From the NCBI GenBank assembly GCA_945859975.1, contig CAMAPH010000008.1, forward strand, positions 16,121 to 80,120: 64,000 nucleotides of DNA, written 5' to 3'. A program made the translations under genes and the position numbers. Below the pieces are notes generated by a model, which worked only from the letters and a program-made list of their open reading frames with translations, was not told where the DNA came from and did no database searches. Numbering within the stretch: the first letter of the stretch is position 1; each line of letters opens with the position of its first letter. Source of the DNA: Chthonomonas calidirosea (GTDB taxonomy: Bacteria; Armatimonadota; Fimbriimonadia; Fimbriimonadales; Fimbriimonadaceae). This document shows, in pieces, positions 42,411 to 52,224 of this stretch.

Positions 42411-43136
42411 TTGCCGATGACGGCAATAATCCCCGCCGCCGGGAAAGGCGTTCGAATGCAGGCCCTCACCGGTGGGCTGCCAAAGGAGCTGCTGCCGCTG
42501 GGCGGAAAGACCGTGCTCGGCCGGATCGTCGAAGAGGCACAAACCGTCGCCGAACGTGTCATCGTCGTATCCGCTCCCGATAAGCCGGAGATCGAAACCT
42601 GGGCCGATGAGAACGATGTCGAACTCGTTTACCAATACGAGCGGCACGGATTCGCCGACGCCGTCGCTTGCGCCGATGTCGAGGATGACGTCGTCGTCCT
42701 CCTCGGAGATTGCCCCTACCACGGCGGTTCGCCCCTGAAACGAATGACCAACATCGTTCTTCGCGGAATCGACGGCTGCATCGCCGTCGAAGAAGTGTCC
42801 GAAGAAGCCATGTCGCGCTACGGAATCACCGAAGTCAACGACTGGGGCGGCATCACGAACATTTTGGAAAAGCCGAAACCGGACCAAACCGCCAGCCGCT
42901 GGGCCATCGCCGCGCGCTACGCCTTTTCGATTCGGACAATGGCGCAAATCCAGCGCGTCGTCGCCGAGCAAAAAGCCGCTCGTCCCGGACAAGAAGTTGG
43001 ACTCACCGAAGTCATCGTAACCCTCATTAAGGAAGGAGCCGACTTCAAAGCCGCCGCCCTGCAAGACGGCCAACGCCGCGCCGATTGCGGAACGCCGAGC
43101 GAATACGAAGCCGCCCAGAGGTTGCGATGGAACTAA
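42411..43136 (+). CDS. Sugar-1-phosphate nucleotidyltransferase (GalU/NTP_transferase family)
   Basis: AIIPAAGKG.RM....PKELLP, G.ADAV, RYG, EKP, DCG. Confidence 0.88.
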   Translation: MPMTAIIPAAGKGVRMQALTGGLPKELLPLGGKTVLGRIVEEAQTVAERVIVVSAPDKPEIETWADENDVELVYQYERHGFADAVACADVEDDVVVLLGDCPYHGGSPLKRMTNIVLRGIDGCIAVEEVSEEAMSRYGITEVNDWGGITNILEKPKPDQTASRWAIAARYAFSIRTMAQIQRVVAEQKAARPGQEVGLTEVIVTLIKEGADFKAAALQDGQRRADCGTPSEYEAAQRLRWN

Positions 43137-44056
43137 CCGTCAAGTTCAGCGCCCCCGGCCGCTGCGGCATTATCGGCAACCCGAGCGACATCTACGGCGG
43201 AAGGGTCCTCTCCTGCTCCCTCCCGCTCCGGAACAGCGTTATGATCCAAACCGGCAAAACCGCCGAACCGAATCTGCCCGACGACCGGCGGCTCTGGAAC
43301 GCCGCTCTAGCCGAGCTGCCGCTAAGCGTTCCGGTGAAATCGGTCGAGTACCACAGCGAGGTACCAAAATCCAGCGGCCTCGCCGGGTCAACTGCCCTGC
43401 TCTCCGCCCTCGTCGCCGCGATCCGCTTCTTGCGAAACGAGCCGTTCCACCCCAGCCCAGAGCTGGCCGAGCAGGTTCGGTACATCGAGCGACACCACGC
43501 CGAGGTCATGTGCGGCTACCAAGACGCCTACATGACCGTCCACGGCGGCCTGCAACTGATGAACTTCGCTGGAAAGCACCCGGTCCAACCCGGCCCCGCC
43601 GCTTCCCTGAAACCGATCGAAGCCGAACTGCCGTTCCTGATCATCACCACCGGCGTCGAGCGCCTCAGCGGCAGCGTCCACGGCCCCATGTCGGAACGCT
43701 GGCTAGAAGGTGAGACCGCTGTTGTAGACGGAATCGCCGCCATCTCCGCCCTCGCCGAGCCCGGCGCAGCCGCGCTTCAATCCGGCGACTGGAGCACCCT
43801 AGCCGCGGCGATGACCGAAAACCAGCGCATCATCCGCGAACTCGGCGGATCGGGCGACCAGATCGACGAACTGATCGCCCGCTGTCTGGAGCACGGAGGT
43901 TTCTCGGCCAAACTCGCCGGAGCCGGCTTGGGCGGAACGGTCATCGCGCTCACGCAAGACGCCGCAGGGTTAGAAGAAAAGCTCAGGGAAAATGGCTACT
44001 CCCGATTCACCCGACCCGTGATTTCCGAAGGCGTTCGACAAGAAACTTCGGGGTAA
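43127..44056 (+). CDS. GHMP sugar kinase, glucuronokinase-like
   Basis: APGR.GIIGNPSDIYGG, VPKSSGLAGS, CGYQD, AKLAGAG.GG; ATG overlaps the upstream gene end. Confidence 0.85.
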   Translation: MELTVKFSAPGRCGIIGNPSDIYGGRVLSCSLPLRNSVMIQTGKTAEPNLPDDRRLWNAALAELPLSVPVKSVEYHSEVPKSSGLAGSTALLSALVAAIRFLRNEPFHPSPELAEQVRYIERHHAEVMCGYQDAYMTVHGGLQLMNFAGKHPVQPGPAASLKPIEAELPFLIITTGVERLSGSVHGPMSERWLEGETAVVDGIAAISALAEPGAAALQSGDWSTLAAAMTENQRIIRELGGSGDQIDELIARCLEHGGFSAKLAGAGLGGTVIALTQDAAGLEEKLRENGYSRFTRPVISEGVRQETSG

Positions 44057-44066
44057 CGTTTCGGGC

Positions 44067-44897
44067 ATGACCGACTTTGTTCTCACCGGTTTCGCCGACG
44101 AAATCAGCCCCGACCTCGGAGTCCAGCTCGACACCATCTCCGGCCTCGGCATCAAAGGTCTCGACCTCCGCGGCGTCAATGGCCTCAACGTGCTGGCCCT
44201 ATCCGACGATGACTTGAAGACAGTGAAGGAAAAGTGCGATCAATTCGGCCTCCACGTCAGCTGCATCGGCTCCCCGGTCAACAAGGTTGGCCTTACTCCG
44301 GAAAACCGAAAGGGCGAATTCGAAAAGCTCGAAAAGGCCATCCACGCCGCCAAACTCACCGGCACCGATCGAATCCGCTTCTTCAGCCCCGAAGTCGGCC
44401 CGGACGAAAATGAATCCAAGCGCGATGATGTCCTCGACTGGGTCCGCGAGCAAGTCGCCCTCGCCACCGACCACGGCATGATCCTCCTCCACGAAAACGA
44501 CGGCCGATTCTGGGGCGCCTATCCGGAGAACGCCAAAATTCTCTTCGAGGAAATCACCACGAAGCACCTCGTCGCCGCCTTCGACTTCGCCAACACCGTC
44601 CTCATCGGCTACCGCCCAATGACCGACTGGTTCCCCTGGCTCCTTCCCCACCTCCACACCCTCCACATGAAGGACGCTCTCGAAGCCGAGCACAAAGTCG
44701 TCCCCGTCGGCCAAGGCGAAGGCCAGGTCGAGGAAACCCTCCGCTGGCTCATCGGCCAAGGCTGGAGCGGCCCGCTGACGCTGGAACCGCACCTCCAAGC
44801 CGCCGGCACTTTCGGTGGCTTCAGCGGCCCGCAGCTCTTCGAAGTCGCGACGAACGCGGTCAAAACGACCCTGCAAAAGGCTCACGAACCCGCATGA
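44067..44897 (+). CDS. Sugar phosphate isomerase/epimerase (AP2Ec TIM barrel)
   Basis: GFADEI, IGSP..K, HEN, FDFAN, HMKD, G.GEG, LEPHL. Confidence 0.88.
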   Translation: MTDFVLTGFADEISPDLGVQLDTISGLGIKGLDLRGVNGLNVLALSDDDLKTVKEKCDQFGLHVSCIGSPVNKVGLTPENRKGEFEKLEKAIHAAKLTGTDRIRFFSPEVGPDENESKRDDVLDWVREQVALATDHGMILLHENDGRFWGAYPENAKILFEEITTKHLVAAFDFANTVLIGYRPMTDWFPWLLPHLHTLHMKDALEAEHKVVPVGQGEGQVEETLRWLIGQGWSGPLTLEPHLQAAGTFGGFSGPQLFEVATNAVKTTLQKAHEPA

Positions 44898-45640
44898 AGT
44901 TCGGAATGTGCGGATCGCTCGACGAAGCCCCGCTGATCCTCGAGGCCGGCTTTGACTACGTCGAAGGCTGGGCAGCGAACCTGTTCTCGCCCACCGTCGA
45001 ACCCGACGCCCGAATCGCGGATAGCCGAATCATTCGAACCAACGGATTCTTCGGCGGCGACGTGAAGATCTACGACGCCACCCAAGCCGCCATCGACCGC
45101 GGCGTCGCCACTGCGCTCAACGCAGCCGAAGCGGGAGTCGAGCTGATGGTCGTCGGCAGCGGCGGCGCCCGCCGCGCCCCGGAAGGTGCCCCCGCTTCGG
45201 CCTACACGGCGATCTTCATGTCGGTGGTTGGCGCAATCCAAGCCTCAGTCGGCGACCGAATCATCCTTGCGCCAGAGCCGCTCAACCGATTCGAGTGCAA
45301 CGTAGGAACCGACCTTTCGGAAATGGCCGCACTCAGCGAGGTCGTAGGCTGCAAGTACTGCGCCGACTCCTACCACGTGCTCAAGGAATGGGCCGAAGAC
45401 GAGGTTCCGGCGACGATCCAGAACTGGCGCCTCGCCATGCCCTTCGCCCCCGCGCACGTCCACATTTCCGGTGGCGATCGCAAGCCACCACGAGCGGACG
45501 ACCCGGACCTGCAAACCTTCGTTGCCCGCCTCAAAGAGTTCGGCTACGACGGCACGGTCAGCGTTGAGGCCAGTCGCGAAGCGACGTTGGAGTCCTTCCA
45601 AGCAATCCTCGCCGAACTGCGCAATCTATTCGCCCGCTAG
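44894..45640 (+). CDS. Sugar phosphate isomerase/epimerase (tagatose epimerase-like)
   Basis: GFDYVE, GSGGAR, EPLNRFE, D.YH, HVH, R..P, GYDG.VSVE. Confidence 0.85.
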   Translation: MKFGMCGSLDEAPLILEAGFDYVEGWAANLFSPTVEPDARIADSRIIRTNGFFGGDVKIYDATQAAIDRGVATALNAAEAGVELMVVGSGGARRAPEGAPASAYTAIFMSVVGAIQASVGDRIILAPEPLNRFECNVGTDLSEMAALSEVVGCKYCADSYHVLKEWAEDEVPATIQNWRLAMPFAPAHVHISGGDRKPPRADDPDLQTFVARLKEFGYDGTVSVEASREATLESFQAILAELRNLFAR

Positions 45641-46545
45641 GCTGAAACGCGGAGGAAGCTGAGCAAATCGGCTTCCTCCAACTTCGGCTCACCCGGCGCG
45701 ACATTGTCCAGCTTCCCCGCCCGCATCCAAGCCTCCAATCGATCCACAAGGTCGAACAAGTGGTCAAACGATTCGACCCAAAACAGCACGGGTTGGAAGT
45801 GGTCGATCTCAAAAGACTGATTGATCACCCACTCCAGCTGAAGCGGATACCTCTGAACCTTTGGCGAAACGATGGAATGCTCGATCTCGCCGTAGCTGCT
45901 CAACAGGCCGCTGCCGTAAACCTTCAGCCCTTTCGGGCTATTCATGAGCCCGAACTCGATGGTGAACCAGAAGAACCGCGCCATCGCCTGGATGATGCTG
46001 GTCAGGCGTTGAATACGCTCGGTTTCGTCCGAGATGCTGTTCACGATCTCCGCCGCCGTATGCGCGCAGTCTCCAAACCGAACTAAAGCATCGGCAAAGG
46101 CGCGATCCGTATGCATCGGAACGTGCCCAGCGATATCGTGGAAGATGTCCGGCTCGGGCAAGTAATCCAGTCGGTCGCTGCGCCGAATCGTAATGGTCGT
46201 TGGGAACTCACGATTCCTCAAGCAGTCGAAAAACAGAAACGCCGGAACGTAGCCACTGACCGCTTTAGCTCGGAATCCCGTAAGCGGATCCAGGAACCGG
46301 TTAACGTCTTCTAGCCGAGGCACTTGATTCGGATCGAGGCAGAGTGACTCGATCCCTTTAAGAAACCACGCGTTGGCGTATAGCTCCCATCGAGGCTGCA
46401 TCCGCTCGAATAGGCGCGCCCACGCCAAGTGGTTCTCCTCCGAGTAGAGCTCGAACGGCTGCTGAATATAAAGCTGGCCGCTGGCCTGCGCTTCCTCGAT
46501 AAAGGGCGACTCCGTTGTCGTGAGACCGCTTAATCTCGTTGCCAC
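45637..46545 (-). CDS. phhA: Phenylalanine 4-hydroxylase
   Basis: DYLPEPDIFHDIAGHVP, FWFTIEFGL, YGSGLLSSYGE. Confidence 0.93.
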   Translation of the reverse strand: MATRLSGLTTTESPFIEEAQASGQLYIQQPFELYSEENHLAWARLFERMQPRWELYANAWFLKGIESLCLDPNQVPRLEDVNRFLDPLTGFRAKAVSGYVPAFLFFDCLRNREFPTTITIRRSDRLDYLPEPDIFHDIAGHVPMHTDRAFADALVRFGDCAHTAAEIVNSISDETERIQRLTSIIQAMARFFWFTIEFGLMNSPKGLKVYGSGLLSSYGEIEHSIVSPKVQRYPLQLEWVINQSFEIDHFQPVLFWVESFDHLFDLVDRLEAWMRAGKLDNVAPGEPKLEEADLLSFLRVSA

Positions 46546-46570: not shown

Positions 46571-47440
46571 CTACTGGACGCTCTCGCTAGCCCAATTAAA
46601 GCCCGCGGCCCTAAAATCGATTCGCCGGCCATTCGCGTCTTCGCAGGTCTCTCTGCCGCACGGGTGAAGCTGGTTGACGGAAGCCGAATCGGCATGGCCA
46701 TCGAAGTAGCTCACATTGGATCGCGTTCCAAAGAAGCCCTTAAAATTTTTGCCCCAGTAGTTGGCCATCGCTGGCTCCGTATCCGAGCCGTGCTCGCAAT
46801 TGCCGTCCACACAACCACCGGGCCATTGGGTTCCGATTGATGGGAAGTCGCTCCACATGGCCACTTTGGCGATGTTTGCGATTCTTGCTGAGCTCTGCGT
46901 GATGCCTAGATCGACCGCCGCAATGGTGAGCGGGTCACCCCAGTGAGGACCGATGCAAGTAGCCCCACCCGCACGCTCCGTGAGAGAGTCGTTCCACTGG
47001 TAATCCAACGGTGGATAGACGTCGGCGAAGAACTCCTTTCGACCAAGGGCCGACTTTGCAATGTTTCCCACGCAGTTCGAGCTCGGATCCTCCATGAAAT
47101 TCCCAAAGGGGTTGTTGCCTTGGCGTTGTTGCCAGGTTCCAATGCCAAATGGTGAGACGGGATTTTTGAAGATTGATCGACTCTTCGTGTACGGTATGAA
47201 TCGAGCCGCGTTGGCGTAAAAGTCGGGCCAAGGGCAGAATGGAGTCGTATCGTCGTGGTCGCTGCTGTACAGCAAAGCGCCGACCGTGGACTGCTTCAAG
47301 TTCGAGAGATCAACTTCTTTTTTTGCGGCAGATTTTGCTTGTGCCAGCACGGGAAGCAACATGCCTGCAAGGATCACCGTGATCGCCATAACGACGAGCA
47401 GCTCGGTGAGTGTGAATCCTCGCTTCAAATTTCCTTGCAT
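46571..47440 (-). CDS. Prepilin-type N-methylation / H-X9-DG-type (DUF1559-like) protein 2
   Basis: KRG|FTLTELLVV, AQAK..AK....LSNLKQ, Y..D.DD, SNVSYFDGHA. Confidence 0.9.
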   Translation of the reverse strand: MQGNLKRGFTLTELLVVMAITVILAGMLLPVLAQAKSAAKKEVDLSNLKQSTVGALLYSSDHDDTTPFCPWPDFYANAARFIPYTKSRSIFKNPVSPFGIGTWQQRQGNNPFGNFMEDPSSNCVGNIAKSALGRKEFFADVYPPLDYQWNDSLTERAGGATCIGPHWGDPLTIAAVDLGITQSSARIANIAKVAMWSDFPSIGTQWPGGCVDGNCEHGSDTEPAMANYWGKNFKGFFGTRSNVSYFDGHADSASVNQLHPCGRETCEDANGRRIDFRAAGFNWASESVQ

Positions 47441-47614
47441 ACCGCGGTGCCCCAAAACTTAGTGATTTGTATATCACAAATTTCAAGGCAGTCACGGTCA
47501 CGGGAAAGGGAAAAAGCCTAGCTTCGGATTTCCGTGCGATTCGTACCTTGATTTATAAGTCTTATTGAGCTTCGAATCGTCTGCCCGCCATTGAAAACGG
47601 GCAGTTCAGTTCTG

Positions 47615-47899
47615 TTAGCCGCCACCCGGAACGGGGGCTCCAGAATTTGAGTTGAGGACATCCTTGGCTTTTACACCACTGTCAGCCTCAATTTTCGCGT
47701 ACTCCTTTTCTTTCTCGGCCTGCGGCATCGGGCTGCTCGCGATCGCTCGAATCTTGTCTTCTGGGGACATTCGCGCGATTGCGTTTTTAGCGTCATCGCC
47801 AGACATGCCTGCGGGGGCATTTCCAGCGTCGCATCCCGTGACAGCGCCAATTGCGGCAACTGCCAAGAAAGCTAGAGCAAAGGTGTTTAGCTTAATCAT
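47615..47899 (-). CDS. Small lipoprotein (94 aa)
   Basis: MIKLNTFALAFLAVAAIGAVTGC lipobox. Confidence 0.8.
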   Translation of the reverse strand: MIKLNTFALAFLAVAAIGAVTGCDAGNAPAGMSGDDAKNAIARMSPEDKIRAIASSPMPQAEKEKEYAKIEADSGVKAKDVLNSNSGAPVPGGG

Positions 47900-47916
47900 A
47901 TCGTTTGGAAAAGGTA

Positions 47917-47940
47917 TGGAACCGCCGATAGGCGGTTCCA
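47917..47940 (-). terminator. Perfect 10-bp stem-loop after prepilin 1 (partial terminator or RNA stabiliser)
   Basis: TGGAACCGCC-GATA-GGCGGTTCCA. Confidence 0.7.
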
Positions 47941-47950
47941 AGTCGTTGAC

Positions 47951-48901
47951 TTACTGGTGCTCAGGAGCAGCCCAGTTAGTTCCCCACCAGTTGAACGCTC
48001 TACCGTTCTGCTCTGGGTGTGGAGCGCCTGCAGACCAACCGATGTTGGCTGGGTTGGATCCGCCTTCGCCACCGTTCCAGGTGTCGTTGAAGATCAGGTT
48101 GCCCTGCGCATTGACGTTTGGCAGAAGCTTCGTGACTTGGTAGTACTGAGCGTGACCGTCCATGTGAGCGACGTTCGAACCGCCGTTCCAGTATCCAGTC
48201 CGGAAGCCCCAGAACCCGCTGAGACCGTTCTGGTTGCCTGGCCAGGTATTTCCGCTTGGCGGGAAGTCGGACCAAAGAACTACCTTAGCGATGTTCACGA
48301 ACTGGGTCGTGCCTCCGCCAACGCCCTCTACTCCGCCGTTGCTTCCGCTACCCGAACCGCCCGAAGACGAGGTGTTTGGAGCTGGAGCGAAGTAGCCGTA
48401 TGCGCCAGTGCAAGGCCCCTGCTGGTATCCGAAAATGTTCGGGTTCAAGCGATAGTCCATTGCTGGATAGATGTCACTGTAATAGCGAGCGCCACCCACG
48501 ACGGAAGTCCCGAGTCCAACGCAACCGTCGTTTGGCGGGAGCATGTAACCAGGAGCTCCTCCAGCGAAACCATTGTCAGCCTTCTGTCGCTGAACAGCAC
48601 CCTGCCTTGCAGTGCTGGACGGGTTCTGGAAGATGTTTCGGTTCTTGGTGTATGGAAGAACACGTGCAGCAAACACGTAATCTTCTTGCCAGTTCGTGTG
48701 AGGCAGATAGTCGTCTGCGTCGTTGCTGTAAATCAACGATGCGGTCATGTTCTGCTTCAGGTTCGAAAGGTCAGAAGTCTTCTTTGCAGCAAGCTTAGCT
48801 TGAGCGAAAACTGGGAACAGGATAGCGGCAAGAATCGCGATGATCGCGATAACGACGAGAAGTTCAATGAGCGTAAAGCCCTGTCTGCGTTGACTCTTCA
48901 T
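47951..48901 (-). CDS. Prepilin-type N-methylation / H-X9-DG-type (DUF1559-like) protein 1
   Basis: [47 protein letters not shown]. Confidence 0.93.
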
Positions 48902-48902
48902 G

Positions 48903-51014
48903 TTAGTTTGAGACTCCGGTTCTTTCTAGTGAATCGGCGTATAAGGACATGGCCCGTCTGGTTTTGACCTTCGGAGCAGAGATGGATGGTTCAGCCGGCA
49001 ACGGTCGCAAGATTGCGCTCGTCATCGGATCGAGGGTGAAATCGAGTTTGCGACCTGCGCCGCGGGGTGAAATTTTTTCTCCGGTAAGTGCGTTTTGCCA
49101 CTTAGCAGTCGGTAGTTGGCTTGTCGAAATCGAAACTGCTCGGCGCTCGTTGGAACGATTTAGCACGACAATCGCTGCGTCACCCTTACTCTTTCGAGCA
49201 AAAGCCAGCACGCCAGCCGCGTCATCGGAAGCAAGGCGAATTGGCTCACCTACTTCGAGCGCTTCGCTACTTTGGCGAATCTGACTCAACCGCTTATAGA
49301 ACTTCAGGAGATCGTTTTGCTCCGTCGCTTTGGACCACTCCATACCATGGCGATTTTGAGGATCAACCCCACCTTGCATACCGATTTCTTCGCCGTAGTA
49401 CACCGACGGAGTACCAGGCCAGGTGAACTGAACCGAAGCAGCTAACATCTGCTTTCTTTGATCCCCAGCGCAGAGGGTTAAAAACCTCGGCGTGTCGTGG
49501 CTAGACAGTAACAGCATCAGATTTCGGCTGACTTGCGGAACATAGCTGTCATAGACTCGGAAAAGCGTGTCGAGATACTGAGAGGCCGTGGTTCTCTCTT
49601 CCGCGATGAATCGCAAGTTTGCGTCGCGGAACTGATAGCCCATCATGGAATCCCACTGATCGCCACTTAGCCAGGCCCGCCCATCGCCCCAGTGCTCGCC
49701 CACAATCCATAGGTCTTTGTTCAAGCCTTTGACCTTCTTTCGGAAAGCACGCCAGAAGTCCATTTCAACTTCATTTGCAACGTCCAGCCGAACACCCTGC
49801 AGCCCAGGCGCAGTCTTGTACCAGAACGGAGCTACGGAGAGAAGATGTTCTCGCGTCTGCCGATTTGCTGTATTCAGCTTCGGCATACTTGGGAAGCCAA
49901 ACCAGGCTTCGTAATCAGGCTGGTTCTTAACCACGACCGGGAATTTCTTAATAAAGTACCAGTCGAGATACGTCGACTGCGGTCCTTTCTCAACAATATC
50001 GTTAAAGGCGAAGAATCTCGGTGACGTATGGTTCAGGCAAAGGTCTAGGATGTATCCAAGGCCCTGCGCCTTCATCGCTTTGCCAAGTCCGATGAACTCC
50101 GCGTTCGTTCCAAACTGCGGATCCAATTCGAAGTAGGTATCCGCCTCGTACCGGTGATTCGACGGCGACTTGAAGATTGGGTTGAAGTAGACCGTACTGA
50201 CGCCAAGAGACTTTAGGTAGGAGAGTTTGCTCTGAACGCCGGCGACGTCTCCACCAAATCGATTGCCATAGGTGGGAGTTCCGTCCCATGGCATCACGTC
50301 TTTGGGATCGTTATCCTTTGAGCCATTGGCAAAGCGATCGGGGAAAATCTGATAGACAATTCCACGACTCACCCAGGATGGCGTTACGAAGGCTGGGGTC
50401 TTGGCAGGATCAATCTGGTAGGTGCCAAGTTTGCGGTTCGCGGTTCCATCTTTCAACAGGATGCTGTAAGTAAACCGACCCGACTTTACAGGGACTGCGG
50501 CTTTAAAGCCTTCATACAACTCGTCACCAGCGATTCGGCTCATTGGCACCGTTCGACCGCCGATGAGCAGGCTTGCCGATGCAACGTCGGCCGTTCTAAC
50601 CCGAACTGAAACGTGCGCTTGTCCCTGATCGACATTGAAGTACGGGATCGCGGTCGAGTGTTTGATTGCGCTAGCCGTGATTCGCCCGTCACCGAGGGCA
50701 GCCGGAATTTTGAAGTCAGCGGGTTGCACGAACAGAAGCGAGTTCGTATTCCCGCCGCCATCGTCTTGTGATTTAGCCTTGGGATCAACAACCCAATTGC
50801 TGCCATTCAGGACAAACTTGTACTGATGCTGTCCAAGCGAAAGCGGAAGCGTGACCGTCCATGTGCGGCCATCCGGATCGACTTTCATCGGATTCTTGGC
50901 ATTGTTCCAGCCATTGAATGTCCCAGCAACATGAACCGAAGTCAGAGCAGTGTCTGCAACATAGCGGAATGTATGCAGCGAAGTTTCCGCCTGAGCCGCA
51001 GCCAACAGCATCAT
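48903..51014 (-). CDS. GH13 alpha-amylase / neopullulanase-cyclomaltodextrinase with N-terminal CBM48-like domain
   Basis: [50 protein letters not shown]. Confidence 0.93.
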
Positions 51015-52033
51015 TCTAGTACCGCCTCTCGCCGACTGCTACCCCTGACGGATAGCGATGTCGGAACGATGACGCGTCGATCTTCCCAGGTGTCTTCGCC
51101 GTCCAAAATTTGCAACAGGCGAGCACAGGCAACGCGGACGATCTCGCCCATGTTCAAACTGACCGAGGACAAGCCGCCGTCAATCATCTCGCAAAGATGT
51201 GTATCGTTGAAGCTAACAAGCCCCAAGTTCTGAGGGACCTTTAGACGCATCTCTCGAGCCGCACCCACAACACCGAGCGCCATGTAGTCATCGAGAACCA
51301 CCAAGGCGTCTGGCGCGTCTCCTGAATTCAAAATGCTACGCGCAACTTCCCGCGCTGAAACCGCTCCAAAATCGGCATGCCAAATTCGGTCCGGCATGGA
51401 TCCGCCTCGTAGCGCGCGCTGATACCCCGCAACGCGATCGTCGCTCACGGTAACCCCAGTCCGACCGGCGAGCATGCCAATTTTCTTGTATCCCATGTCG
51501 ACCAAATGTCGAGTTGCGAGTTCGGCCGCTGCAACGTTGTCGTTATCCACGGAATGAATCTGGTTATTGTTGAGTGGATTCCCGATTAGGACGAAAGGAA
51601 AATTGTCCTGCTGCAGCCGACCGATCCGAAAGTCGGTTGCCTCACTTTCAACCAGGATCAGGCCGTCCACGCGGCGAGTCCGAAGCATTTCATCGTAGAT
51701 GTAGGATTGCCCTGCAACAGACGTGACCATGTCAAGGCAAAGGTGGTACGGCGAACCGTTCAGGACATCAAGAATTTCTGCGACCAATCCTGCAAAGAAC
51801 GGATCGTCACTCAGGCCGCCCATGGGGCGATTAAGCACAAGGCCAATCAAGTTAGTGCGCTTACTTCTAAGGGATCGAGCGCGCACATCCGGCTGGTAGT
51901 TGTGCGCCCGCATCGCTTCCACGACGCGGTCTCGAATGGCGGCTTCGACCTTTTCGTCACCCGCTAGGACGCGAGACACAGTTGCCTGTGAAACGCTTGC
52001 TATTCTTGCGATGTCCTGCTGCGTGACCCTCAT
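51011..52033 (-). CDS. LacI family transcriptional regulator (MalR-like)
   Basis: VT..DIA..A.VS.ATVSRVL, Y.P...ARSL, VD.DN, VP..L..VSFND. Confidence 0.95.
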   Translation of the reverse strand: MRVTQQDIARIASVSQATVSRVLAGDEKVEAAIRDRVVEAMRAHNYQPDVRARSLRSKRTNLIGLVLNRPMGGLSDDPFFAGLVAEILDVLNGSPYHLCLDMVTSVAGQSYIYDEMLRTRRVDGLILVESEATDFRIGRLQQDNFPFVLIGNPLNNNQIHSVDNDNVAAAELATRHLVDMGYKKIGMLAGRTGVTVSDDRVAGYQRALRGGSMPDRIWHADFGAVSAREVARSILNSGDAPDALVVLDDYMALGVVGAAREMRLKVPQNLGLVSFNDTHLCEMIDGGLSSVSLNMGEIVRVACARLLQILDGEDTWEDRRVIVPTSLSVRGSSRREAVLE

Positions 52034-52052
52034 AGGTTCTTCCGATCTCAAC

Positions 52053-52106
52053 TGTGAGAATACGAATTCTTGTCGACACTATACACAAGAATTCGTATTC
52101 TCACAA
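52053..52106 (-). promoter_or_regulatory. Twin LacI-type operators flanking a sigma70 promoter
   Basis: Perfect 21-bp inverted repeat (52053-52073 / 52085-52105); each arm holds AGAAT-A-CG-A-ATTCT; minus strand TTGTGA-17-TATAGT. Confidence 0.8.
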
Positions 52107-52169
52107 GCATTTCCGAAAATATTCTCAGAAATTTCTTCAGAGGTCGAGATTTGAGGGACGTAAAAAGCA

Positions 52170-52199
52170 AAAACCGGATGGTCTTCACCATCCGGTTTT
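52170..52199 (-). terminator. Intrinsic terminator after the response regulator
   Basis: AAAACCGGATGGT-CTTC-ACCATCCGGTTTT. Confidence 0.85.
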
Positions 52200-52224
52200 C
52201 TTTCACACAACAGGCGAGATTGCC

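Follow-up and report, generated by a model that had tools for sequence, protein, structure and literature searches.

What do two prepilin-like proteins and a very small lipoprotein contribute to a starch/maltodextrin locus in which a sugar transporter would be expected? The genes lie on the minus strand of contig C8 of Chthonomonas calidirosea (Armatimonadota), here from a lake, within an analyzed stretch of 64,000 nt (the window), in the order LacI, GH13, prepilin 1, lipoprotein and prepilin 2, and all five were found where the first-pass annotation had read them, with gene calls that are crude (longest ORF, greedy choice). LacI (51011–52051) and GH13 (48903–51014) overlap by 4 nt, a single nucleotide separates the GH13 stop from the ATG of prepilin 1 (47951–48901), and a spacer of 160 nt lies between the lipoprotein (47615–47899) and prepilin 2 (46571–47455). 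The reported absence of ABC, MFS and TonB/SusCD genes from the locus and the window was upheld, as profile searches with BPD_transp_1, MFS_1, TonB_dep_Rec and Plug gave zero matches on the whole of contig C8.

A terminator-like hairpin followed by a T-run (52169–52200, minus strand; 14-pair stem, then GCTTTTT) terminates the response-regulator gene upstream of lacI and marks the 5′ boundary of the lacI unit. Two further minus-strand hairpins lie inside the gene run. One, with a 10-bp stem, was found by a hairpin scan past the stop of prepilin 1 and ahead of the start codon of the lipoprotein (47917–47940). The other was read from the sequence directly 3′ of the lipoprotein stop, inside the 160-nt spacer (47581–47604; 7-bp stem CTGCCCG/CGGGCAG, 10-nt loop); it has no T-run and is not among the calls of the terminator scan. 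In four freshwater RNA libraries, contigs of ~92–93% identity span prepilin 1 and the lipoprotein, and prepilin 2 is also reached in three of the four; these contigs stem from a related strain, their presence proves neither transcription nor one single transcript, and they lend weak support to the reading preferred below.

The LacI-family repressor (LacI HTH 55.1 bits, Peripla_BP_3 98.1 bits) reaches no equivalog cut-off, and its true start may be an ATG six codons inside the ORF. In its promoter/operator region (52057–52106, minus strand), the CG-centred 14-mer AGAATWCGWATTCT occurs twice (plus strand, 52057–52070 and 52088–52101). The two copies make up the arms of an inverted repeat of 21 bp and lie on either side of a −10-like TATAGT; a −35-like TTGTGA is at 52101–52106. 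Exact copies of the 14-mer number only three in the 3.12-Mb genome, two at lacI and one before an SBP-permease fusion gene; the predicted LacI operator GAATWCGWATTC likewise has two copies at lacI and one further exact copy. This third copy stands 27 nt 5′ of the fusion gene, which belongs to a CUT1-type ABC importer unlinked to the amylase locus; in it, SBP_bac_1 is fused to a MalF/UgpA-like permease, and a MalG/UgpE-like permease follows. A pair of GAATWCGWATTC copies at ~31 bp spacing precedes lacI in 9/9 same-genus loci checked, and the operator 12-mer, with a chance expectation of 0.002 per 10 kb, occurs upstream of the importer ortholog in 4/6 genomes checked and in degenerate form in a fifth. 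From sequence alone we infer LacI control and which sugar acts as inducer, and LacI is predicted to be autoregulated.

These data bear directly on the first-pass annotation, which had placed the prepilins and the lipoprotein in the position of a transporter and had named a maltodextrin transporter under the same operator elsewhere as counter-evidence: in silico, such a transporter exists. Genome searches returned a MalF/MalG-like ABC importer and no TonB-dependent (SusC-type) receptor, with zero barrel or plug domain matches in a genome that is 95.8% complete and no such receptor in any of ten additional genomes of the family Fimbriimonadaceae (0/10).

The GH13 alpha-glucan hydrolase (Alpha-amylase 220.7 bits, CBM48/AMPK1_CBM) carries a CBM48-type module at the N-terminus besides an amylase C-terminal domain. 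The nearest models are those of maltodextrin glucosidase (MalZ; 302 bits, cut-off 568) and cyclomaltodextrinase (296 bits, cut-off 540), both scoring below cut-off; such enzymes are usually not extracellular. The enzyme had been described as secreted, which is supported in part. Its N-terminus is a short hydrophobic stretch, because the start overlaps the lacI stop, whereas the N-termini of its sister-family orthologs are canonical signal peptides, and judging from this comparison the enzyme is probably exported.

Both prepilins exceed the N_methyl cut-off of 21.2 bits (prepilin 1, 316 aa, 38.7 bits; prepilin 2, 294 aa, 29.6 bits, with its start likely at an ATG at ~47440). Prepilin 1 carries a class III signal and an N-methylation motif, G|FTLIE, in which the Glu would become residue +5 of the mature protein. 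Such a Glu is typical of subunits entering filaments, and every one of the 48 other paralogs and 30 GH13-linked orthologs has it. Structure prediction, as proposed in the earlier reading, was run for the prepilin and gave a long helix at the N-terminus followed by a pilin-like globular head (pLDDT 82.2, pTM 0.80), in which an insert at ~residues 95–165 is conserved in the GH13-linked clade only. In a fold search with this model the best match was weak (Z 4.3, to the pilin PilA4); pilin or pseudopilin chains account for more than half of the 40 matches listed, and a periplasmic-binding-protein fold is absent from these matches, the best of which reaches just Z 4.3. Neither a carbohydrate-binding module nor a lectin fold was recognised in the prepilin. 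The predicted fold is pilin-like rather than binding-protein-like.

The family label attached to these proteins, DUF1559-like/H-X9-DG, fits in part. Like the DUF1559/H-X9-DG families of Planctomycetota, Verrucomicrobiota and Armatimonadota, they share an N-terminal methylation motif, SNLKQ, Y..D.DD and a C-terminal DGH and belong to a large paralog set (50 genes in this genome), and in the nearest Atlas clusters 30–54% of members carry N_methyl + SBP_bac_10. Unlike these families, neither locus prepilin matches PF07596/DUF1559 or TIGR04294/H-X9-DG at E <= 0.01, whereas some paralogs pass the respective cut-offs (four for PF07596, nine for TIGR04294), the PF07596 matches spanning profile positions 2–79 of 268 only. 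DUF1559 proteins are labelled as of "unknown function" in the literature found, and the literature searched yielded no account that ties this prepilin family to glycoside hydrolases, to repressors of the sugar-responsive kind or to a mini-lipoprotein partner.

A signal peptide and a VTGC lipobox mark the mini-lipoprotein; its small ORF spans 47615–47941, and the ATG at 47899 yields the 94 aa. It has no family match in the profile search and consists of a small four-helix part, which contains the conserved motif SPMP...K, and a tail rich in Pro and Gly. G22, C23 and K63 are invariant over 18 orthologs, and the structural model reaches a pLDDT of 68.5 (~79–94 for residues 40–80).

The LacI-GH-prepilin-lipoprotein neighbourhood is kept among relatives. 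A prepilin directly follows GH13 in 28/29 same-genus loci and in 8/8 loci of the sister family, where GH13 identity is ~40%; a LacI ortholog lies upstream of GH13 in 26/29 relatives' loci, the three others ending at contig edges, and a lipoprotein homolog lies 3′ of the prepilin in 21/29. The GH13-prepilin arrangement is far from chance. In the tree, prepilin 2 groups with the GH13-adjacent prepilin of G023 (96/97) and with the sister-family clade (97/94); it is a member of another, older lineage of prepilins that are linked to GH13 but lack a lipoprotein partner. Among loci fetched deep enough downstream, a prepilin 2-type copy past the lipoprotein is present just in L085, the nearest relative fetched.

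The genome contains the prepilin-lipoprotein module ~17–20 times, the pair at this locus being one of these copies: a lipobox mini-ORF directly follows 17/50 paralogs, and a small membrane-anchored ORF follows three. Five of the 11 LacI genes have a prepilin paralog immediately downstream (binomial p = 4.9e-7). Related cassettes combine LacI, prepilin and mini-lipoprotein with GH44 or PF10091, or a prepilin and a small membrane-anchored ORF with GH30; on contig C44, an ArsR-type regulator, prepilin, mini-lipoprotein, GH43 and ABC binding protein form one gene run. In other Armatimonadota, a mini-lipoprotein accompanies 23/97 paralogs and LacI is directly upstream of 11/97. With the pair sharing the lacI-GH13 operon and such cassettes recurring in the genome, its description as a real, conserved, locus-tied module under sugar control stands. 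Control also extends to vitamins: a TPP riboswitch (68.1 bits, gathering score 54.3) lies 75 nt 5′ of one paralog and a cobalamin-type candidate directly 5′ of another (AdoCbl-II, 36.2 bits, 0.3 under the gathering score of 36.5), both unique in the genome for their riboswitch type and neither paralog with an exported enzyme adjacent. Vitamins are imported by cells and not secreted, and these paralogs therefore favour a role in capture or uptake.

Taken together, the locus reads as a LacI-repressed alpha-glucan (starch/maltodextrin) utilisation operon, with regulation by LacI inferred, whose products are best explained as an exported GH13, a mini-lipoprotein and two proteins of pseudopilin type that are distantly related to DUF1559. 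Our preferred, still tentative reading, to which we assign a probability of roughly 45%, is that this Fimbriimonadaceae bacterium uses a ligand-specific pseudopilin with its lipoprotein to capture alpha-glucan at the envelope ahead of the ABC importer. A prepilin peptidase would cut the prepilin, which would become a minor, ligand-specific subunit of a type IV filament, either a T2SS-type pseudopilus or a pilus. The genome encodes both machineries: PilD, type IV pilus genes and a canonical T2SS cluster are present, together with three secretins and four PilB/GspE ATPases. Aided by the lipoprotein, the prepilin would capture alpha-glucan at the outer envelope or across it, the exported GH13 would trim the polymer, and the ABC importer would take up the products; the module would therefore work before the transporter, not instead of it. 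A large prepilin family of "unknown function" would gain a specific sugar to test. The importer owns a fused binding domain, however, and an extra binder is therefore not obviously needed. The weak fold matches with no recognised carbohydrate-binding module or lectin fold, the many paralogs beside housekeeping genes and the AdoCbl-II score below gathering also count against this reading.

An unlikely alternative is that the prepilin acts as a substrate-specific pseudopilin and the lipoprotein as a pilotin- or anchor-like partner that bring GH13 to a shared T2SS or to the surface. Its model is the Klebsiella pullulanase secreton, which combines a maltose-induced GH13, pseudopilins and the small lipoprotein PulS. 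Here, too, a starch-related GH13, pseudopilin-type proteins, a small lipoprotein and predicted maltodextrin-responsive control come together, GH13-prepilin translational coupling is kept over two families, neighbouring hydrolases bear signal-like N-termini, and the genome has the canonical T2SS cluster (GspDEFG and I/J/K-like genes; GspG 140 bits, cut-off 88.85; GspD 402.7 bits, cut-off 351). Unlike in Klebsiella, the machinery genes are elsewhere, only accessory prepilins adjoin the enzyme, and these fall under the GspG (29.5, cut-off 88.85) and GspH (27.5, cut-off 80) cut-offs. Minor pseudopilins are already encoded in the T2SS cluster itself. A crude predictor showed no excess of large signal-peptide-like proteins next to paralogs (13/50 against a background of 19%, p = 0.14), and the models nearest to GH13 point to enzymes that are not usually extracellular. 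The paralogs behind the TPP riboswitch and the cobalamin-type candidate would be left unexplained.

It is likewise improbable that the PilD-cut prepilin never polymerises and serves as an inner-membrane-anchored periplasmic binder handing sugar over to the ABC importer. Such a bindosome has been proposed for sugar-binding proteins of archaea that bear pilin-type signal peptides and are assembled in Sulfolobus by the Bas system, and NCBIfam includes a BasE model. A pilin-type signal followed by a large globular head (220–380 aa in the paralog family, above usual major pilins) would suit proteins serving sugar uptake before ABC importers, as would ligand-sensing control for sugars, B1 and, with a candidate riboswitch, B12, the ABC binding protein in the contig C44 cassette and the Pfam name of DUF1559, SBP_bac_10. 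The archaeal proteins are true ABC binding proteins, whereas the fold predicted here, from weak matches, is pilin-like, the importer already has its binding domain, and the invariant Glu +5 speaks for filament assembly.

Adhesion is a quite doubtful explanation. In this case, the prepilins would be interchangeable fimbrial or attachment subunits, nutrient-switched for sticking to particles, with no ligand-specific uptake role. The accessible part of the Fimbriimonas ginsengisoli genome paper links 79 PulG-type genes to fimbriae and attachment (PMC4072686), and many paralogs here adjoin housekeeping or unrelated genes; against this, the GH13 linkage of one prepilin clade with its own conserved insert is maintained over two families, and particle attachment is ill-matched with riboswitch control by soluble vitamins. 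That the prepilin and lipoprotein are themselves the uptake route, replacing a MalEFG/SusCD-type transporter as originally proposed, would fit the absence of transporter genes from the contig and of TonB-dependent receptors from the family genomes searched, but is very improbable and was not borne out, given the operator shared with the ABC importer, 25 BPD_transp_1 matches in the genome, the co-occurrence of the module with ABC genes on contig C44 and the lack of an inner-membrane channel in a pilin plus a 94-aa lipoprotein.

The envelope capture that we favour has partial counterparts elsewhere. As far as the accessible text goes, Streptococcus sanguinis PilA-PilC are low-abundance minor, modular type IV pilins with extra glycan-binding modules (PMC9934059); they serve adhesion in a monoderm host, whereas no lectin module was recognised here. 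In planctomycetes, a different phylum, gold-labelled dextran was located on pili-like fibres (PMC5394234), and a "fishing rod" hypothesis for these fibres is worded in the part of a review available to us (PMC12078418). The shared idea is that pilin-like proteins hold polysaccharide outside the cell before uptake; the accessible text on the planctomycete fibres assigns no genes, whereas here candidate genes and a predicted sugar are at hand, known from sequence alone. Bacteroidota Sus-type loci pair SusC/SusD with the surface glycan-binding lipoproteins SusE/F. Like them, the cassettes described here are substrate-specific and regulator-linked and join a hydrolase to envelope proteins, including lipoproteins, that would act before inner-membrane import; unlike in Sus, where a SusC-type TonB-dependent transporter not found in this genome takes part, the envelope side here consists of a pilin-type protein together with a lipoprotein of 94 aa.

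The five genes form one run on the minus strand, and open reading frame calls, Pfam and NCBIfam agree on the order and spacing that the first-pass annotation had described. The run starts with lacI (51011-52051), encoding a LacI-family repressor in which Pfam detects both the LacI HTH and the periplasmic-binding-protein-like sugar domain (PF00356, 55.1 bits; PF13377, 98.1 bits) and which reaches no equivalog cut-off in NCBIfam. It overlaps by 4 nt with the gene of a 703-aa GH13 protein (48903-51014), where Pfam and NCBIfam place a CBM48-type module at the N-terminus alongside the Alpha-amylase catalytic domain (PF00128, 220.7 bits, cut-off 22), below the subfamily equivalog cut-offs of NCBIfam. 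The ATG of prepilin 1 (47951-48901) lies 1 nt past the GH13 stop. Then follow a small ORF (47615-47941), which from its ATG at 47899 yields 94 aa with the lipobox VTGC, and, after a 160-nt spacer, prepilin 2 (46571-47455). Both prepilins exceed the family cut-offs of PF07963 (21.2 bits) and TIGR02532 (16.3 bits), with 38.7 and 35.1 bits for prepilin 1 and 29.6 and 27.4 bits for prepilin 2.

The amylase had been called secreted. At the locus itself its N-terminus shows only a short hydrophobic stretch, because the GH13 start overlaps the lacI stop, but the orthologs of a sister family carry canonical signal peptides, and export of the enzyme is therefore likely; the earlier label is supported only in part, by way of the orthologs rather than the local N-terminus. 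The absence of a transporter gene from the window was confirmed, as family searches of its contig (C8) returned no binding-protein-dependent ABC permease, no MFS protein and no TonB-dependent barrel or plug. Prepilin 2 is followed, 25 nt beyond its stop, by a phenylalanine 4-monooxygenase gene that is likewise on the minus strand (45637-46545; NF008877, 300 bits, cut-off 247). A 323-aa ORF and two xylose-isomerase-like TIM-barrel genes (AP_endonuc_2) on the plus strand (43085-45640) converge on the locus and may be further sugar metabolism genes.

Of 36 same-genus genomes, 32 contain an ortholog of the GH13 gene, as do eight of the ten genomes examined from one sister family; a search of 14 genomes from three further families of the order found none. 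Across 29 non-self same-genus loci (GH13 identity 44-97%), the prepilin comes directly after GH13 in 28 and lacI directly before it in 26; the one exception and the three exceptions are loci truncated at contig ends. A lipoprotein homolog follows the prepilin in 21. All eight sister-family loci (GH13 identity ~40%) have the prepilin directly after GH13, with frames overlapping or abutting; only one of the eight has lacI, and a lipoprotein homolog was found in none of them. The proposed check of neighbourhood conservation thus came out in favour of the arrangement, and lacI, GH13, prepilin and lipoprotein form a conserved unit. One relative carries two runs of the cassette (fetched locus L083, G024:C1:2410524-2422551): the first run comprises lacI, GH13, prepilin, lipoprotein, a GH13-like fragment and a further lipoprotein-like ORF, and the second comprises lacI, prepilin and lipoprotein, with the GAATACGAATTC site again preceding the second lacI.

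In both locus prepilins, a hydrophobic helix comes after the pilin-type motif, which has Gly at -1, Phe at +1 and Glu at +5. An alignment of 30 prepilin 1 orthologs showed F9, T10, L11 and E13 to be invariant; across the 48 other paralogs of the genome, F9, L11 and E13 are again invariant and T10 occurs in 47. The same alignment conserves SNLKQ, Y..D.DD, PY.K and a C-terminal DGH, near-invariant in the 48 paralogs too. Residues ~95-165 are conserved in the GH13-linked clade only and correspond mostly to gaps in the paralogs.

The AlphaFold model of prepilin 1 (pLDDT 82.2, pTM 0.80) consists of a helix (residues 11-61) and a globular head. PilA4 of Thermus was the best match of the structure aligner (Z 4.3, rmsd 3.9 over 116 residues), with all Z below 5; EpsG and PulG are among the type IV pilin and pseudopilin chains that make up more than half of the 40 fold matches listed at such Z values. 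No periplasmic-binding-protein fold, such as the Pfam name SBP_bac_10 suggests, occurs among these 40, whose Z is low throughout. Foldseek returned no match for the model at E <= 0.001, and when PDB sequences were searched with a profile of the prepilin, pilins matched in the N-terminal helix alone, with none for the head. The GspG, GspH, GspI, GspJ and GspK equivalog cut-offs are not reached, prepilin 1 scoring 29.5 vs 88.85 for GspG and 27.5 vs 80 for GspH in matches confined to the N-terminal helix.

The locus prepilins had been set beside the N-methylation/H-X9-DG (DUF1559-like) proteins. However, neither of them matches PF07596 (DUF1559/SBP_bac_10) at E <= 0.01 or reaches TIGR04294, the 22-position C-terminal H-X9-DG motif (cut-off 19 bits), which is reduced in both to a ...N..H.DGH end. 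Elsewhere in the genome, 14 paralogs match PF07596, four of them above cut-off and all within profile positions 2-79 of 268, and nine paralogs pass the TIGR04294 cut-off. In the nearest Atlas clusters, SBP_bac_10 is found in 30-54% of members. Profile matching of this kind places the paralog family in a DUF1559-like group, in which the locus prepilins are divergent outliers.

A tree of 30 GH13-linked prepilins, with a midpoint root only, contains two lineages. Prepilin 1 falls in the lipoprotein-carrying lineage; the tree neighbours of prepilin 2 are a prepilin adjacent to GH13 in another species (support 96/97) and the sister-family clade (97/94). On this midpoint-rooted tree, an origin of prepilin 2 as a recent tandem duplicate of prepilin 1 is rejected; by its placement, it is best read as a member of a second, old amylase-linked lineage. 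Where the fetched sequence reached far enough downstream, the two prepilin types were seen together only in the nearest relative fetched.

The 94-aa protein is a predicted bacterial lipoprotein: the signal peptide (...AVAAIGAVTGC) ends in the lipobox cysteine, G22 and C23 are invariant across 18 orthologs, and the genome encodes signal peptidase II (Peptidase_A8 at positions 1-525 of fetched locus L007). Neither Pfam nor NCBIfam gave a family match for the small ORF, and a fold search with its model returned generic helical matches only (best Z 3.8), from which no resemblance to a pilotin or foldase is drawn. A profile built from the locus lipoprotein finds the small ORFs linked to other paralogs weakly, 13 of its best 31 matches adjoining a prepilin paralog. 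Complex prediction for the mature lipoprotein and the head of prepilin 1 (score 0.05, mark 0.32) counts neither way.

The lacI promoter contains an inverted repeat with 21-bp arms, built from the CG-centred 14-mer AGAATACGAATTCT and its near-mirror, and the 14-mer copies flank a -10-like TATAGT. Besides the two copies at lacI, the whole genome has only one further exact copy of the 14-mer. This third copy, on contig C16, has an 18-mer in common with the lacI site and lies 27 nt upstream of a pair of ABC importer genes (locus L041). The CG-centred palindrome AGAATWCGWATTCT, with two copies at lacI and one at the importer, is conserved in relatives. The first importer gene encodes an 824-aa fusion of a solute-binding domain and a permease (L041:6313-8787; SBP_bac_1 106.5 bits plus BPD_transp_1; MalF-/UgpA-like), and the second a 582-aa permease with MalG-/UgpE-like matches (L041:8784-10532). 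These MalF/UgpA/MalG/UgpE-like matches are all below equivalog cut-offs. A family-1 solute-binding domain with two BPD_transp_1 permeases is the composition of a CUT1 (MalEFG-type) importer; BPD_transp_1 has 25 matches across the genome.

Relatives were scanned for the 12-mer GAATWCGWATTC, with 0.002 copies expected per 10 kb. A pair of copies ~31 bp apart lies upstream of lacI in 9/9 same-genus loci, and a single copy precedes lacI in one sister-family locus. Upstream of the ortholog of the ABC gene, the site was found in 4/6 genomes; the copy in one locus (L168) is degenerate, and none was seen in another (L169), where the ORF start is probably over-extended. Since lacI and the ABC importer have this predicted operator in common, the canonical importer belongs to the predicted LacI regulon of the locus. 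No further 14-mer occurs on contig C8 at up to two mismatches, so none lies near prepilin 2, which may be controlled by read-through or by its own promoter. The importer itself (L041:6313-10532) is unusual in that the binding domain is attached to the N-terminus of the MalF-like permease and the MalG-like permease has a ~370-aa N-terminal extension; ~800-aa frames with a permease domain are also found at C1:185877 and C20:307 of the genome and in relatives.

Based on phmmer (E < 1e-8), the genome contains 50 prepilin paralogs, both locus prepilins counted. An ORF of 50-110 aa with signal peptide and lipobox comes after 17 of the 50, in the same orientation and at a spacing of -16 to +75 nt, and a small membrane-anchored ORF after three more; a 47-aa downstream ORF was dropped as spurious, having no hydrophobic stretch. 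Pfam annotation of 242 neighbours of the paralogs revealed further cassettes: LacI, prepilin, mini-lipoprotein and GH44; LacI, prepilin, mini-lipoprotein and a PF10091 glucoamylase-like protein; prepilin, a small membrane-anchored ORF without lipobox and GH30; an ArsR-type regulator with prepilin, mini-lipoprotein, GH43 and an ABC binding protein; and a GntR/Peripla_BP regulator followed by a prepilin. A paralog is the immediate downstream same-strand neighbour of 5 of the 11 LacI genes (binomial p 4.9e-7, background 50 in 3070 genes) and lies within two genes for 6 of the 11. Housekeeping genes adjoin many other paralogs. Large neighbours with signal-peptide-like N-termini are found at 13/50 paralogs vs a background of 19%, no significant enrichment (p 0.14), with a crude predictor that scores 27% of genes positive. 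In other Armatimonadota (79 loci, 97 paralogs), a mini-lipoprotein lies downstream in 23/97 and LacI directly upstream in 11/97. These results show that the prepilin-lipoprotein module is repeated in the genome, under predicted nutrient-sensing control.

Two further protein groups were noted beside paralogs. Three paralogous proteins of ~795-837 aa (L009:800-3187, minus strand; L022:2036-4546 and L023:2509-5019, both plus) match Phosphoesterase PF04185 and each adjoin a prepilin paralog; one is encoded beside a GH9 gene, and one has weak beta-propeller matches too. FAD-dependent Trp_halogenase-like proteins of 566-581 aa are encoded in two prepilin cassettes (L029:3680-5422, minus; L009:5544-7241, plus), one gene coming after LacI, prepilin and mini-lipoprotein and the other having a 3-keto-disaccharide hydrolase gene in the same region.

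Vitamin riboswitches also occur next to members of the family. The only TPP riboswitch of the genome (L013:3034-3140, minus strand, i.e. C2:19231-19337 of the window's host genome G000; 68.1 bits, gathering score 54.3) precedes, at a distance of 75 nt, a prepilin paralog (L013:2192-2959, minus) that is apparently standalone, with no adjoining thiamine gene. The only cobalamin-type candidate, an AdoCbl-II element (L031:2792-2881, plus strand, contig C1 ~51125-51214), scores 36.2 bits at a gathering score of 36.5 and is located directly upstream of another paralog ORF (L031:2765-3757, plus). Members of the prepilin family are thus predicted to be switched by sugar and B1 sensors and probably, by a match just under the gathering score, by a B12 sensor. 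Switching by sugar and vitamin sensors is a pattern typical of acquisition genes.

The genome encodes the parts of type IV filament systems, with a prepilin peptidase of the A24 family (L003:760-1782; A24_N_bact 103.8 bits, Peptidase_A24 42.8 bits), four PilB/GspE-type ATPases, several PilT-type ATPases, five platform genes and three secretins. A canonical T2SS cluster comprises GspE, GspF, GspG, GspD and I/J/K-like minor pseudopilins; its GspG and GspD are above curated cut-offs, and the true GspG is on contig C7. What is probably the true locus of the type IV pilus, with many variants of the major pilin, lies on contig C6 (52911-57330, minus strand), where a PilC/PilB pair and a secretin flank eight small pilin genes (130-145 aa) in tandem. 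On contig C13, the prepilin peptidase gene opens a run (L003:760-10209) that continues with a prepilin-like gene and three large proteins (654, 761 and 1060 aa) without family match, the first with a PilV-like N-terminus; PilB, PilT and PilC lie just upstream of this run.

A genome-wide check for SusC-like TonB-dependent transporters, suggested earlier together with the module, found none: PF00593 and PF07715 have no match in this 95.8% complete genome, nor in any of ten further genomes of the family. Of the Armatimonadota genomes sampled, 72/121 carry one to six TonB-dependent receptors.

We favour, at a probability of roughly 0.45, the reading in which the prepilin is a ligand-specific minor filament subunit. 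Built into a type IV filament, it would capture alpha-glucan together with the lipoprotein at or across the outer envelope, and GH13, once exported, would act downstream of this capture, followed by the ABC importer. A Pul-like secretion or display adaptor seems unlikely to us, as it would not account for control by sugar, B1 and probably B12 sensors. We consider a bindosome-like binder, anchored in the membrane and outside any filament, about equally unlikely; the absence of a periplasmic-binding-protein fold among the 40 low-Z matches bears on it. Adhesion pilins switched by nutrients are somewhat less probable again, and here the Fimbriimonas ginsengisoli genome paper links 79 PulG-type genes to fimbriae and attachment (PMC4072686). 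The part of the original proposal in which prepilin and lipoprotein take the place of a transporter has become highly improbable, as the genome holds what had been named beforehand as the finding against it, a canonical MalF/MalG-like importer under the same operator and hence in the same predicted regulon.

Beyond the locus, the B1 and B12 riboswitch elements and the lack of detected TonB-dependent receptors point to a general role of the prepilin family in envelope nutrient acquisition, which bears on the open question of the polysaccharide uptake route of these bacteria. A far-reaching and rather doubtful extension of the filament-subunit reading is a plug-in pseudopilin system for TonB-independent nutrient acquisition at the outer membrane, in Armatimonadota and by extension in DUF1559-rich PVC phyla. 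Each nutrient regulon (alpha-glucan, other glycans, B1, B12) may contribute a pilin specific for its ligand, in many cases along with a mini-lipoprotein; these pilins may join a common type IV filament machine, which may capture the ligand and reel it through a secretin into the periplasm, to exported enzymes and ABC importers. If true, this would be a pilin-built functional counterpart of SusCD and BtuB.

DUF1559-type pilin-like proteins are among the largest paralog families of Planctomycetota and Armatimonadota, and the expansion itself is already known; for the 68 DUF1559 genes of Planctopirus limnophila, the paper on that species calls the function unknown. Dextran-binding fibres (PMC5394234) and a 'fishing rod' idea (PMC12078418) have been put forward for planctomycetes, the fibres being left without assigned genes in the accessible parts of these papers. 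Searches of the main text of freely available papers turned up no account that connects such prepilins with LacI operators, with glycoside hydrolases, with a mini-lipoprotein partner or with riboswitches. The parts, pilin-type proteins and an ordinary sugar regulon, are familiar; what is specific is the way they are coupled, and through this coupling the function of a large orphan family becomes testable. The locus ties one prepilin clade to alpha-glucans, a repressor with a readable operator, a partner lipoprotein and an identifiable ABC importer, which allows the direct design of binding, induction and knock-out experiments.

The genome holding the window comprises 3.12 Mb in 101 contigs and is 95.8% complete. 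Among public genomes with a name, proteins related to prepilin 1 belong to the Armatimonadota, the best match (69% identity) coming from a Fimbriimonadaceae MAG and further matches from Fimbriimonadales, Chthonomonadales, Armatimonadaceae and Capsulimonadaceae. Sequencing runs containing the stretch are lake-water and aquatic metagenomes. Four freshwater metatranscriptome libraries contain contigs ~92-93% identical to it, which therefore come from a related strain. In each of the four, one contig spans prepilin 1 and the lipoprotein, denoting presence in an RNA library only, and GH13 and lacI are found on separate contigs, with the breaks at the conserved prepilin N-terminus. In three of the four libraries, the prepilin 1-lipoprotein contig crosses the spacer and enters the 5' part of prepilin 2.
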